Positions 45,287 to 50,988 of a stretch of 64,000 nucleotides of DNA are shown here, piece after piece. A program made the translations under genes and the position numbers. Source of the DNA: a virus; IMG/VR virus record IMGVR_UViG_3300044658_000141, positions 39,077 through 103,076 of that record. One strand, written 5' to 3'. Positions within the stretch are counted from its first letter, which is position 1, and each line of letters starts with the position of its first letter. Under the pieces are notes generated by a model that saw only the letters and a list, made by a program, of their open reading frames with translations, was not told where the DNA came from and did not search any database.

Positions 45287-45364
45287 TGGAGTGTAGTAGC
45301 ACCTAGCGAGTTTTCATCGGACAGGGTCTTGCAAGGGGCTCCCCTGTTTGTTACCATGGCTGTC

Positions 45365-45892
45365 ATGCAACAGACATCCCTTTTTGAATCTGAAGAGCAG
45401 CAGGGGCCAACCTGCCCGCTCTGTCATTCCCCTGTCCGGCAACTCCCGGACAGCCAATTCGCCGATGTGGTGGCGATCGGCCAACAGCTCATGTGGCTGC
45501 ACCTGCATTATGAGCAAGCCTTGCCATTTCCCCTGCGCAAAATCACAAAGTCAGGCGTGCCTGTTTCGTATCGCGTGGAAAAGATGCGCATGTCGGACGA
45601 TAAAACATCTCTGTTTGTCAATGAGACGCTCACCCTGGCCGGTATCCCGCCAGAGGTGTACGAGTATCGCCTGGGTGACAAATCGGCGCTAGAGTGGGTC
45701 GTAGACCAGTACCAGGTCACAACTGATAAACGCAGCGGCCTGGTCAGCGATCCGAATAACCAGGATGATGAAGAGTACATTGTCCGGTTAGTCTGCCAGG
45801 TCGTGGCTGTTTCGCTGGAGACGGTGCGACTGACGAAGTTGCTGGACGAGCTGGTGGCACCGGAGGACTGGCTAGGAGTGGAAGCTATATAG
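45365..45892 (+). CDS. Stand-alone C-terminal specificity-domain fragment of a type ISP restriction-modification enzyme
   Basis: VEKMR...TLAGIPPEVYEYRLGDKSALEWVVDQYQV.TDKRSG...DPN...YIVRL...V.VSLETV; N-terminal QTSLF and CPLC. Likely leaderless (TTGCAA-18-TACCAT, ATG 7 nt downstream). Confidence 0.75.
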   Translation: MQQTSLFESEEQQGPTCPLCHSPVRQLPDSQFADVVAIGQQLMWLHLHYEQALPFPLRKITKSGVPVSYRVEKMRMSDDKTSLFVNETLTLAGIPPEVYEYRLGDKSALEWVVDQYQVTTDKRSGLVSDPNNQDDEEYIVRLVCQVVAVSLETVRLTKLLDELVAPEDWLGVEAI

Positions 45893-45901
45893 AGGGAGCT
45901 G

Positions 45902-46687
45902 TCAACTGTAGCTTGCGATTACGGAAAAAGTAGCAGCCAACTTGTGATAGAGCGCAGGCCAGCCACTTCTGAGCCACACATGAGATCCGTACTGCATGAC
46001 ACGATAGCAGGTAAGTGGGGCCACGCGTCGATGATCCAACGGTATGCCTAGTTCTGCAAGCTTGTCATAGACTGGATTGTATGGTAATTCCCTACTCACA
46101 ATATACCCCCAGACGTCCCGCTTCGACCAATGAGCTAGCGGCGAGCAGTGCCACCTATCGCCTTCGCTTTTTACCTGGTAAAGCGGTTTTGTACCGCCTT
46201 TGAGTGCATAGGTACGGCTTCTGCTCTCAGATGCCAGCAGTCCCAGGAACGTACCATCGTAGCCGCCTGAGAGATCCTTGAGAGAGTCCTGTGTCTCATC
46301 CCAAACAGGAGGATTGCCCCATATTGCCAACGCTTCAGGATCTTCGCACAGATCAGGACGCATCATTTCCTTACACCAATCGCGCCACGGTTGCATACAG
46401 CGTACACGATGGAGATGGAAGTTGTAGCGCTCTTCAGTGTCGGAGAGGAACTGAAGACTTTCTGGATAATCGTAGCCATCGTCACCAAAGACGACAAACA
46501 CACGATTACCGGCAGAATAAAGCAAATCAAGAAGAACGTATGAATCAATGCCACCTGAAAAAGCAAGATATGGATGGTCAATTTTGCTTATTGCCTCGTC
46601 AATGATCGCTCTAGACTTCTCGACCTTTCGTTGAAAATGTTGCAGTTTGGCATGGTAGATATGTTGCAGCTTTTCTATTTCAAGCAT
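45902..46687 (-). CDS. cysH: CysH-like (PAPS reductase family) accessory protein of type IV-B CRISPR-Cas
   Basis: PP-loop AFSGGIDS, LGL.ASES..R, PLAHWS..DVW.YI...LPYNPVYD; last gene of the csf operon. Confidence 0.88.
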   Translation of the reverse strand: MLEIEKLQHIYHAKLQHFQRKVEKSRAIIDEAISKIDHPYLAFSGGIDSYVLLDLLYSAGNRVFVVFGDDGYDYPESLQFLSDTEERYNFHLHRVRCMQPWRDWCKEMMRPDLCEDPEALAIWGNPPVWDETQDSLKDLSGGYDGTFLGLLASESRSRTYALKGGTKPLYQVKSEGDRWHCSPLAHWSKRDVWGYIVSRELPYNPVYDKLAELGIPLDHRRVAPLTCYRVMQYGSHVWLRSGWPALYHKLAATFSVIASYS

Positions 46688-47441
46688 CTTTTTTTCTTGC
46701 CTTTGTTACACACCATGATTGATTGATCGAATGCCACTGCGGAGCACGATAGGCAATGTGTTGGATATCAAGCGGCATAGCGATAGATTGATCAAACAAA
46801 GGACCTGGTACTGGTCGCATTAAATTTGCATCAAGCCATTCTGATTGATCTTGTTCAATTGGCTCTACATGCCACGCGAGCACATGCCCGTTTCCCTGGC
46901 TTCTCTTTTTGGCCAGTCCAACAATAGGCTGGATAAGCTCTGTTATCTGCTCTCTATCGCCATAGGCGTACCAGACAACCTTATCTGTTACGAGAGTAGG
47001 CAGTGGCATATGATAGGCTTTATAGCGGCCTTGCTCAATGATGATTTTCTCAACTCGACCGCCAAAGTCGATGTGATCAGAAAGAGATGGTTGTGTGTCA
47101 AAACGCTTATTCCAGTACTGCGTGTCTCTCGCCTGGATTTTGATTTGGGCTGAGGAACATGACCAGTACCAGAGGCTCTTATCCTGTATCTGTTCTTTGA
47201 AATCAAACCAGACATCGCCGGTTCGCATCTGCTGAACTTCAGGCGATGGCTTGCCTCTCATCTCAAGAGGCAAGCGAGCAAACATCACACATTCTTTTGG
47301 ATCTGGCAGATAGTAGAACTCATCTCCATAATGACGCCGGAGGACCTGAGCGGCTAAAATGCCATCCAGTGAGAGATCTTCTGGGCGTGCCAGGGCAATA
47401 GAGCCAGCAAGATGGGCAGTGATTTGGAGCGCTTCAAACAT
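46680..47441 (-). CDS. csf3: Type IV Cas5 (Csf3)
   Basis: LQITAHL...LSLDGILA, LPL, WSCS, GRYKAY.MP, WYAYGD, GLAKKRSQGNGHV..W, RPVP, YRAPQW. Confidence 0.85.
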   Translation of the reverse strand: MFEALQITAHLAGSIALARPEDLSLDGILAAQVLRRHYGDEFYYLPDPKECVMFARLPLEMRGKPSPEVQQMRTGDVWFDFKEQIQDKSLWYWSCSSAQIKIQARDTQYWNKRFDTQPSLSDHIDFGGRVEKIIIEQGRYKAYHMPLPTLVTDKVVWYAYGDREQITELIQPIVGLAKKRSQGNGHVLAWHVEPIEQDQSEWLDANLMRPVPGPLFDQSIAMPLDIQHIAYRAPQWHSINQSWCVTKARKKDA

Positions 47442-48394
47442 CAGCCTATCTCACCCAACACTTTTAGGATGTCCTCTTTATTCGTTTGTAAATGCTCAGA
47501 ATATGCCTGTCCGAGAGGCAGACCAACCTCTTGATTACCAGCCCTGGCAAGAGGCGATACAGACATCCAATTGTCAAATTTTAGCTCAACTTCGCCGCAA
47601 CCATGCCGGGATTGACCACCAATAAACGGGGCCTTACTCCACTCGATCAACGCGCTAGCAAAGGCTTCATACTCCAGATCGGTCACATCCTCTAGCTGAA
47701 GCCAGCAGTAGAAGCGTGTACCAGCAATCAGCACCTCTTGTGAATAGCGCATCTGCTGCGCTGTACCCGGCTTCTCTGCAATCTCTGTTCCGTCTTTTGC
47801 TAGTTTCGTCTTTGGCGCTTCTAACAGTGTTCGCTCTGGGGCTGGAAGATATTGCTGCCATTTCTCAGATTTAGCGTCATCTGTACGCGTGAAACTGTGT
47901 ACGTCCGTCATGTCGTAGATGCTCAGATACGACTCTGGGAGATGCTGATAGTGTGCAGGGAGGAGATGCATCATCTCTTTGCAGACGGGATACCACTTGC
48001 CTACTTTTAACTTGCCTTCGAGGATTTGACGACCACATGCTCCCCCAAAGACGCCCACAAGCGGGATGAGTTCGCGCAATTTACGCGCCTGCCCCATATC
48101 CAGACCACGACCGGCTTCTTTTGTGAGAGCACCACCGGATGTCAAAAAGTGAAATGCCGCCGGGGAAAGCGTCGGGTCCCCTAGCTCACGAAGCATATAG
48201 CGCATACCGGTATCGCGTAATTGACCACGAAACGAGTTACCTGAGATCATCGCTACATCAATGATTTTGCCATGAGAGATAACTTTCTCGCGACGTAGAA
48301 TTGACGTTGTACCGCCAGTGCTATCACCCAGATGAGACACCGCACTTAAGGCTGTAGCAATGCCCTCAAACCTGTAACTATTTACCTGCTGCAT
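47441..48394 (-). CDS. csf2: Type IV Cas7 (Csf2)
   Basis: ALSAVSH, ISGNSFRGQLRD, FL.SGG, IPLVGVFGG, TRTDD, QMRY..E.L..GT, IGGQSRHGCG. Confidence 0.9.
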   Translation of the reverse strand: MQQVNSYRFEGIATALSAVSHLGDSTGGTTSILRREKVISHGKIIDVAMISGNSFRGQLRDTGMRYMLRELGDPTLSPAAFHFLTSGGALTKEAGRGLDMGQARKLRELIPLVGVFGGACGRQILEGKLKVGKWYPVCKEMMHLLPAHYQHLPESYLSIYDMTDVHSFTRTDDAKSEKWQQYLPAPERTLLEAPKTKLAKDGTEIAEKPGTAQQMRYSQEVLIAGTRFYCWLQLEDVTDLEYEAFASALIEWSKAPFIGGQSRHGCGEVELKFDNWMSVSPLARAGNQEVGLPLGQAYSEHLQTNKEDILKVLGEIG

Positions 48395-48806
48395 TGGCAA
48401 TCCATCCTTTCTCTTGCTTTTCTTCGTCTTTAGCTATTCTCATGAGCATCACACAGACCTGTGGATCACGCCGTAGTGCCTCTAGGATGAGCATAGGGTC
48501 ACCGTGTTTTCCTGCAAGGCAATCGGCCACGAATCGGCGTTCATCATCATCCTTGCCAATCTCAGCCACTTGGAACATCTGTGAGAGCCTAGAGAGAAAA
48601 AAGGTCAAGCTGTTCGTAATTCGTGCCGCCGTCGCTACTCTCTCTTCGTACATTCTCCAGATCTCCATGCGATACTTGCTCAGATATTCTTTGTCGATGC
48701 CGTTCCACACGGCTCTCAGCAGGCTTGCTGCTACTTTTCGTATCTCTAGTTCCTGCTGAAATGGCTCCAGGTCCATCTCCTGCGCTAGGCCGTTCTCCTG
48801 TTGCAT
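48378..48806 (-). CDS. cas11: Type IV-B small subunit (Cas11-like)
   Basis: Helical ~142-aa protein between csf1 and csf2 (LLRAVW..ID..Y...IW..YEERV..AA...L..F...L). Confidence 0.7.
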   Translation of the reverse strand: MQQENGLAQEMDLEPFQQELEIRKVAASLLRAVWNGIDKEYLSKYRMEIWRMYEERVATAARITNSLTFFLSRLSQMFQVAEIGKDDDERRFVADCLAGKHGDPMLILEALRRDPQVCVMLMRIAKDEEKQEKGWIANAAGK

Positions 48807-49473
48807 CTTTTTCTTCCTTTTCAACTATCGTGATATAGCTGTACAATTCGATTTGCGGCGAGTTGCGCCATTGCTCCAATTGGCGACTGAGCAAAAGCGC
48901 CCAATCCCATTGGCCATGTTTTTTAAGCGTCTGGCCATAGAGATTACCGCTCAGGATCTCTCCTTTTCCATGTCCGAGTTGAAGCAGCCCCATAAACGGC
49001 ATCTCAATTGCTTCCCAGATTGACAGATTGAGATGTGCAACCTGCTCCTCAACCTGTATGGACAATTGATGGCTTCTAGTGGCATTCAATGGAGCTTGTA
49101 GCAGCACATGCTTCTTTTTGCTCAGAGATATCACGAGATAGCAATCTTCTTCCAGACCATGCCGCAATGCATGCAAGATATCGTCCTTCATCTGTTCGCG
49201 CTGCCAATTCTGCCAGGAATGAGGCTGGACAATAAGCGACATCTTGCGAAATTCTGGATGGCCTGCTTTATTGTCAAAGTACCACTGGCAGGCATCACAG
49301 AGATAGGCTGATGTTGGACATGCTGCAAGATAGTGGCTGTTGAATGTATCAGCTAGTCCACGAGCAACAGTATGCTGTTCAGTACATCTCGTTGCACAGA
49401 GATAGCATTGTGCTGTCCCTATGCTGTTATCGTTCTGGAACTGGCTGTAGAGCCAACCGATAGATTTATTCAT
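48589..49473 (-). CDS. csf1: Type IV large subunit Cas8 (Csf1)
   Basis: CYLC...TFN......CP.S..LCDAC zinc motif; S.KKHVL..AP.N; C-terminal ~72 codons overlap cas11 in another frame. ATG 49473 has a GAGG RBS. Confidence 0.8.
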   Translation of the reverse strand: MNKSIGWLYSQFQNDNSIGTAQCYLCATRCTEQHTVARGLADTFNSHYLAACPTSAYLCDACQWYFDNKAGHPEFRKMSLIVQPHSWQNWQREQMKDDILHALRHGLEEDCYLVISLSKKKHVLLQAPLNATRSHQLSIQVEEQVAHLNLSIWEAIEMPFMGLLQLGHGKGEILSGNLYGQTLKKHGQWDWALLLSRQLEQWRNSPQIELYSYITIVEKEEKDATGERPSAGDGPGAISAGTRDTKSSSKPAESRVERHRQRISEQVSHGDLENVRRESSDGGTNYEQLDLFSL

Positions 49474-50679: not shown

Positions 50680-50988
50680 ATGACTAACGAACGCGCTTCT
50701 AGACACCGCCGCAGGCGCGCTCCAGCACCGCAGCGCCTGAGCGAGCAGGGGTTGACCGCACTCGACCAAATTTTTCCAGGCTTTGCCGAATGGTACCGTG
50801 CCAATTACGACGAGCAGGGCCGGTTGAAACTAGAGTGGTCTTGTAATCCTTCTCACCTCATAGACGACGCGCCGGAGGACCTGAGCCACAACCGGTTGAA
50901 ACTAGAGTGGTTTTGTAATCCTTCTCACCTGCCGGAAGCACAGCCACCACCCACAAATACCGAGGAGGGAAAAGAAGAAAATGCATGA
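50680..50988 (+). CDS. Small hypothetical protein carrying an in-frame 72-bp insertion/duplication
   Basis: Paralog of 28418-28627; RLKLEW(S/F)CNPSHL occurs twice. Confidence 0.55.
   Translation: MTNERASRHRRRRAPAPQRLSEQGLTALDQIFPGFAEWYRANYDEQGRLKLEWSCNPSHLIDDAPEDLSHNRLKLEWFCNPSHLPEAQPPPTNTEEGKEENA
50820..50930. CRISPR. Candidate mini-array: 39-bp repeat / 33-bp spacer / 39-bp repeat
   Basis: CCGGTTGAAACTAGAGTGGT(C/T)TTGTAATCCTTCTCACCT at 50820-50858 and 50892-50930; spacer has a 17-nt match to csf3. Could also be an intragenic duplication. Confidence 0.35.

Follow-up and report, generated by a model that had tools for sequence, protein, structure and literature searches.

The locus lies on a 103-kb IMG/VR virus record, part of which makes up the window (the whole stretch of DNA analyzed here, 64,000 nt), and consists of a compact operon on the minus strand. 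The first gene, csf1, encodes the type IV large subunit (48589..49473, 294 aa plus the stop) and matches the PADLOC profile Csf1_0_IV over residues 19 to 211 (E = 3.1e-17). Between csf1 and csf2 lies cas11, encoding the type IV-B small subunit (48378..48806, 142 aa; PADLOC Cas11_1_IV, E = 4.1e-18). The Cas7 gene csf2 (47441..48400) is recognized by PADLOC Csf2_0_IV (E = 1.7e-73), by Csf2 of 7jhy (E = 7.6e-28), and by TIGR03115 (E = 6.1e-19), and the Cas5 gene csf3 (46680..47441) is recognized by PADLOC Csf3_0_IV (E = 1.5e-39) and TIGR03116 (E = 6.7e-10), both NCBIfam matches being under their curated cutoffs. A cysH-like gene of the PAPS-reductase family (45902..46687; PF01507, E = 9.5e-20) overlaps the end of csf3 and completes the minus-strand series; such a gene is the usual companion of IV-B systems, with which it has co-diversified (PMC7038947). 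Because PADLOC makes four type IV calls, a PAPS_reduct gene is present, and Csf2 matches the solved 7JHY complex, the operon is, judged by its gene content, a subtype IV-B cassette. The identities of csf1 and cas11 within a type IV-B operon, as assigned in an earlier note on this DNA, are borne out by PADLOC, Pfam, 7JHY, and fold matches. No DinG/RecD helicase, Cas6, adaptation gene, or CRISPR array is found inside the five-gene operon, the remaining window being unannotated.

Two features of the surroundings deserve mention in their own right. About 1 kb upstream of the otherwise array-less operon, at 50820-50930, two 39-nt direct repeats (38/39 identical, including GTTGAAAC) are spaced by 72 nt, forming a repeat-spacer-repeat unit. 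Furthermore, the genes are tightly coupled in the window, whereas in the related operons L008, L011, and L019 gaps of 250 to 780 nt separate cas11 from csf2 or csf2 from csf3.

The csf1 frame is open from 49776, and its homologues align from the ATG at 49473, near which 78 of them begin, yielding a protein of 294 aa; on the strength of this alignment, the open frame upstream of 49473 is outside the csf1 gene. At its other end, csf1 continues past the cas11 ATG at 48806 to a TAG at 48589-48591, while cas11, read in frame +1 relative to csf1, ends at 48378. The two genes therefore share 218 nt of the minus strand (48589..48806), in which the tail frame of csf1 runs over the first 72 codons of cas11. 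Just before the stop, the Csf1 C terminus reads GGTNYEQLDLFSL (final residues NYEQLDLFSL) and contains the candidate beta-clamp-binding motif QLDLF (48598..48612, minus strand; residues 288 to 292), two residues from the end of the protein. The ribosome-binding site of cas11, AAGGAAG (48813..48819, minus strand), is positioned 7 nt upstream of the ATG, inside the csf1 codons for VEKEEK. The earlier note had described a csf1 frame open for about 72 codons over the 5′ half of cas11 and ending in QLDLF, and the coordinates 48589-48806 that it gave delimit exactly the shared stretch. As a possible source of the extension, an assembly error or frameshift can be excluded, since a 644-nt contig from a different, independent rhizosphere sample spans 48323-48966 with zero differences or gaps and since the extension is conserved.

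The AlphaFold2 models assign contrasting properties to the two products of the shared DNA. Residues 1 to 219 of Csf1 (48817..49473, minus strand), carrying two CxxC pairs, are modeled as a folded core with a pLDDT of 73 to 98 per 10-residue block; the four cysteines are nearly invariant in alignment A1 and invariant in A2. The only significant PDB matches of this core are the type IV-A effector-complex chains 7xg1_A and 8rc3_G (probability 1.00), which we take to be Csf1 given their length of about 240 aa. The following 75 residues, 220 to 294 (48592..48816, minus strand), are enriched in G, S, R, D, and P with few aromatic residues, and the model gives residues 220 to 292 a pLDDT below 50 and no secondary structure, in keeping with the disordered tail that had been suggested from the sequence. 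Cas11 is modeled as an all-helical bundle (pLDDT 88.9), with the overlapped residues 15 to 77 above 90; its best fold match is 7jhy_g, from the type IV-B complex (TM 0.54, probability 0.89, with a weak E value of 0.96). The disorder modeled for the tail, set against the confident helical bundle modeled for the Cas11 half that it overlaps, indicates that the tail frame is the younger of the two and Cas11 the older, which fits overprinting by csf1.

The same arrangement recurs in related loci. In 13 of 13 distinct loci holding both genes, taken from metagenomes and IMG/VR, csf1 and cas11 overlap by 167 to 242 nt with cas11 in frame +1, so the claim of an overprinted tail holds beyond the window. 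In all 13, the Shine-Dalgarno sequence and ATG of cas11 sit inside csf1 codons for VEK(G/E)E, AAAGGA- or GGAGG-like sites preceding the ATG. A word-indexed search retrieved 78 Csf1 homologues with 45 to 74% identity, mostly 280 to 315 aa long and ending mostly in QLDLFSL, QLSLFSE, QQSLF, or SQxSLW(D/E)V. Long tails are present in 70 of 75 close homologues in this identity range, the tail-less relatives being P0030, P0032, P0037, P0044, and P0050. The earlier note considered that its proposal would be refuted if the motif and the overlap were missing from close homologues; scanning the homologues for a terminal QxxLF and for the cas11 overlap found both to be kept, and the motif extends to distant homologues as well. 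Searches in other collections added nothing: two scans of genome contigs returned zero relatives, tblastn gave zero matches with the Csf1 proteins P0001 and P0104 against a plasmid collection and with P0001 against a phage collection, and searches of viral contigs with distant long forms found nothing.

Two individual cases can be recorded here. L018/P0048, a candidate short form, was rejected because its sequence is cut by the contig end. In L008 (3779-4186), and also in L006 and L007, a 9-nt insertion in cas11 (SGR) coincides with the site of the motif, and the tail of csf1 closes with QPVRQIVFPW, which may represent a decayed or altered motif.

An overlap of this kind raises the question of whether the amino acid sequence of the extension matters at all. 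The extension could serve only to tune cas11 translation, or it could be neutral read-through whose motif is a by-product of Cas11. The cas11 ribosome-binding site inside csf1 would suit such an explanation, as would the behavior of most tail columns, which follow the conservation of Cas11. Indeed, Cas11 shows good conservation over its overlapped half (AVWNGIDKEY..SKYRMEIWR..EERVA..ARIT), column identity is higher for Cas11 than for csf1 along most of the linker, and, as far as the alignments tell, much of the apparent conservation of the tail follows from Cas11. Moreover, the overlap adds little synonymous constraint, the synonymous-codon identity of cas11 being barely raised within it (0.457 versus 0.429 outside). 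We do not count this difference as support for dual coding, and it suggests that the greater part of the tail experiences little sequence constraint in its own right.

The open frame and its tip behave differently from the linker. Holding the Cas11 protein fixed and redrawing synonymous codons from local codon usage, we found that the csf1 frame of this locus stays open for at least 72 codons in 1.2% of the redraws and is both open and terminated by QxxL[FW] in none of 3,000. Across loci, the probability under this null that the frame is open as far as observed ranges from 0.008 to 0.083, and that of an open frame with a terminal QxxL[FW] is at most 0.0003. The summed log10 probability of openness reaches -20.9 over 12 loci treated as independent, a value that overstates their independence, since the loci are related. 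For comparison, stop-free runs at other places in these genes, read in this relative frame, have a median length of 9 codons. An open frame carrying the terminal motif is thus far rarer under a Cas11-protein null than an explanation by irrelevance would need.

The motif columns point in the same direction. Identity in the csf1 frame is at least 0.9 at the Q, the second L, and the F, and about 0.7 at the first L, while the overlapped Cas11 residues vary. Exchanges in Cas11 at the motif are silent for csf1: S↔N corresponds to CAG↔CAA and leaves the Q intact, and S→F corresponds to CTC→CTT and leaves the L intact. The motif also recurs in a second register. In the first register, QL[DS]LF lies over the Cas11 residues SLxSF and the stop follows two or three codons on; in the second, this first motif is lost and the frame reads six codons further to SQxxLW over the Cas11 residues LCG. 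In these alignments, the Q1-L4-[FW]5 pattern is kept despite its shifted position on the DNA. From the codon-redraw null, the motif columns, and the two registers, we conclude that the open frame and its tip have been selected and that the tail is neither a chance open frame nor a mere by-product of Cas11. Selection keeps both frames over the shared DNA, as csf1 is open in every locus and Cas11 is, over its overlapped half, both conserved and modeled as a confident fold.

The distribution of the tail across the family allows an unbiased tally of the motif. An exhaustive profile search produced 277 Csf1-family representatives, and for the tally we sorted the 168 proteins with a matched core C terminus on tail length, calling long those with at least 25 aa. 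Long tails occur in 114 of the 168 and short forms account for the other 54. A QxxL[FW] within 12 residues of the end is present in 89 of the 114 long forms (78%) and in 0 of the 54 short ones, versus 0.1% of shuffled tails. Many of the misses among the long forms are near-variants, such as QLPLL, QLSLDL, and QLPLGV directly before the stop, or EPTLWEV. In 22 very divergent long forms, with a mean column identity of 24%, the only invariant columns are the four zinc-binding cysteines and the Q and L of the terminal motif. However, this set was picked for having the motif, and the evidence to rely on is therefore the unbiased 168-protein tally. The contrast between 78% and 0.1% in this tally, the near-absence of anything but the zinc-binding cysteines and the terminal QxxLF shared by the most distant proteins (with the same caveat of selection), and the fact that translational coupling needs no 200-nt overlap make it very improbable that the sequence of the extension is irrelevant. 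Accordingly, we hold with high confidence that the dual-coding tail is real and selected, with the reservation that direct evidence for its translation is lacking.

In a tree of the core built from 140 sequences, short forms are nested among long ones and interspersed with them, requiring 18 parsimony changes. On this tree, made with FastTree, rooted at the midpoint, and with support values unexamined, the tail appears to have been gained and lost many times, as would suit a modular add-on. The csf1 genes of cultured plasmids are all short (7 of 7, 218 to 228 aa) and lack the cas11 overlap, the seven being those of JS623, Mycolicibacterium, Gordonia, Xylanimonas, Cellulosimicrobium, Rhodovastum, and Rhodococcus (an unannotated csf1 frame). 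A tether formed by the tail would therefore not be essential to IV-B function in general. The IV-B operons of the Cellulosimicrobium and Xylanimonas plasmids differ in another respect: csf1 and cas11 are separated by an additional conserved gene, whose product of about 77 aa has a Cys pair (L029, 1849-2082; L030, 1807-2037).

What, then, does the tip bind? Clamp-binding motifs follow the consensus QL(S/D)LF, with QLDLF binding most strongly among the pentapeptides, and several clamp clients bear their motif in a C-terminal tail (PMC11139829), in agreement with the earlier note, which had called the motif canonical and often located at the end of such tails. The attributes expected of a clamp client are met here: the motif matches, its site is terminal and disordered in the model, and it is conserved above the Cas11 residues that it overlaps. 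The W that replaces F at position 5 in about a third of close relatives is less straightforward, F→W reportedly weakening clamp binding in E. coli Pol III alpha (PMC11139829), but it has a precedent in mycobacterial ImuB, whose QLPLWG is a functional clamp motif (PMC10421592).

Docking of the tail was examined in silico. The 103-kb virus record carries no dnaN, and the host genome is lacking; the sole hint to the host is one 63%-identical homologue from Reticulibacter, which suggests that it may belong to the Ktedonobacteria. A stand-in clamp from another phylum was therefore used, and we modeled two chains of B. subtilis DnaN (Swiss-Prot) with residues 245 to 294 of Csf1. The complex scored 0.67 (runs of 0.68, 0.67, and 0.67) versus 0.00 for the best control, a mark reached by 58 of 80 solved complexes and by 2 of 110 mismatched pairs; replacing DnaN with an unrelated protein gave 0.00. 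At least 58% of contacts are shared between the runs, and the partner pLDDT is at least 42. Confident contacts join Csf1 residues 284 to 293 to DnaN residues 179-184, 250-255, 329-331, 355-357, and 373-378, which, going by E. coli numbering, we take to be the canonical cleft between domains II and III. Modeling the tail with DnaN, as the earlier note had suggested, thus places the motif on a stand-in clamp and leaves the cognate host clamp uncovered. Furthermore, because clamp-peptide complexes have already been solved, the docking result speaks for likeness at most and may reflect resemblance to known peptides instead of binding by this copy.

The terminal motif could alternatively dock another partner, such as a Csf subunit, the CysH-like enzyme, or some phage or host protein yet to be identified, with its likeness to a clamp motif being coincidental. 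Conservation attests to selection on the motif and not to its target, position 5 accepts F or W and position 2 is variable, and IV-B has co-diversified with cysH (PMC7038947). Nevertheless, clamp motifs are defined by exactly the features conserved here, namely, Q1, L4, and F/W5, with position 3 and the residues that follow the motif being small or acidic, and the variants QLPLL, QLSLDL, and QLPLGV resemble the hexapeptide form. The score of 0.00 obtained when DnaN was swapped for an unrelated protein bears on this alternative only in part, as no other partner was modeled. Taken together, we consider a different partner unlikely.

Other termini resembling clamp motifs were encountered along the record. 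At 45356-45892, on the plus strand and converging on cysH, a stand-alone fragment matches the specificity domain of Type ISP restriction enzymes (PF18135, E = 8.9e-29), of which it covers the C-terminal third alone. Its N terminus reads MAVMQQTSLFE, followed by CPLCH, placing a second clamp-motif-like terminus beside the operon. An N-terminal QxxS[LM]F[DE] is found in four of its six closest relatives (71 to 95% identity), the other two having been called from a later start; the fragment is absent from the related IV-B loci examined. Outside the window, a 137-aa open reading frame whose status as a gene is unverified (G000:C1:12035-12448, plus strand) ends in QLPMF, four residues from the C terminus. 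A scan of the whole record for other open reading frames with a terminal QxxLF gave few matches, all in unverified frames, and was uninformative.

The best explanation of these observations, which we regard as probable in the absence of binding data, is that the tip is a working clamp-binding motif that tethers the complex to replicating DNA. In the mechanism that we propose, csf1 reads past the point where short forms stop and on through 72 cas11 codons in a second frame, generating a disordered extension of about 75 residues. The bulk of this extension would serve as a linker under weak constraint, with Cas11 largely setting its sequence, and the QLDLF tip would be a selected short linear motif that enters the hydrophobic cleft of the host DnaN, between domains II and III. 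Since clamp loading on DNA takes place at replication forks and behind them, we propose that the tail tethers the Csf ribonucleoprotein (Csf1, Cas11, Csf3, the RNA-bound Csf2 filament, and possibly the CysH-like enzyme) to replicating DNA. A complex with neither helicase nor nuclease would thereby reach freshly unwound DNA. Physical binding to the clamp, recruitment to forks, and whatever the complex does there are inferred.

The same contact with the clamp could also be used competitively, the tail occupying DnaN clefts and slowing the replication of the host or of a rival element, or clamp-dependent repair, with or without RNA guidance. The element is a virus record, its motif is the strongest known clamp peptide (PMC11139829), and the docking model is equally compatible with competition. 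Three considerations make this use of the motif improbable in our eyes. An effector complex normally contains a single copy of the large subunit, and Csf1 would therefore be in short supply compared with clamps. A small protein dedicated to inhibition would be a simpler solution. Finally, the motif is always joined by a long linker to a nucleic-acid-binding complex, an architecture that suits tethering.

If the tether holds, it is tempting to extend the model, as a possibility rather than an expectation, to long-form IV-B as a replication-coupled machine for surveillance or modification. The clamp tether would replace the DinG/RecD helicase of IV-A and IV-D, and an RNA-loaded Csf filament with a CysH-like PP-loop enzyme would be parked at forks, within reach of exposed single-stranded DNA. 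There, rival elements in the course of replication, or host DNA, could be read, blocked, or given a chemical mark.

No CRISPR-Cas subtype is less well understood than IV-B: its function has been called unknown, it has no array, nuclease, or helicase, and it binds heterogeneous RNA (PMC7038947, PMC7937560). A conserved clamp-docking peptide, whose binding remains unshown, offers a cheaply testable lead. Clamp docking, if true, would place the complex at replicating DNA and suggest why a helicase is dispensable. The locus also represents a clean case of overprinting, in which the alternative frame of a folded helical protein gave rise to a disordered tail with its short linear motif, and natural tail-less relatives and the second motif register provide built-in controls. 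Full-text literature searches that paired Csf1 or type IV-B with clamp or DnaN did not turn up any published account of the feature.

The closest characterized system is the IV-B operon of the Mycobacterium sp. JS623 plasmid pMYCSM02 (PDB 7JHY; PMC7937560), which has the same gene set and order, csf1-cas11-csf2-csf3, a cysH-like gene nearby, and neither array nor helicase. It differs in its Csf1, a short form of 228 aa that ends before cas11, without overlap, long tail, or QxxLF; Csf1 is unresolved in the 7JHY structure (PMC7937560). The JS623 protein (L025, 2318-3004) terminates in RRGDDQSLL, a faint echo of a terminal Q-x-L-L that could be due to chance.

Among clamp clients, Pol II, Pol IV, the C terminus of Pol III alpha, and the N terminus of Hda (PMC11139829), as well as ImuB with its QLPLWG (PMC10421592), similarly carry QL[SD]LF or QxxL[FW] in a disordered terminal region. 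These clients are replication and repair enzymes, whereas the carrier here is a CRISPR-type effector subunit of a mobile element for which there are no binding data. The use of the clamp by mobile elements to steer their own machinery to replicating DNA has precedents in TnsE of Tn7, the transposases of the Tn3 family and of insertion sequences, and MuC of phage Mu (PMC12153342, PMC11417375, PMC3971601, PMC12867686). Those proteins are transposition or transcription factors, while the cargo in the present case would be an RNA-loaded Cas7 filament of unknown activity. The gene arrangement also has a parallel in types I-B, I-C, and I-D, in which Cas11 is produced from within the large-subunit gene (10.1101/2020.04.18.045682; PMC11899642), the coding sequences overlapping and cas11 having an internal start. 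There, however, Cas11 is in frame with Cas8 or Cas10d and identical to its C terminus; here, the frames are different, and the DNA shared by csf1 and cas11 therefore encodes two unrelated peptides.
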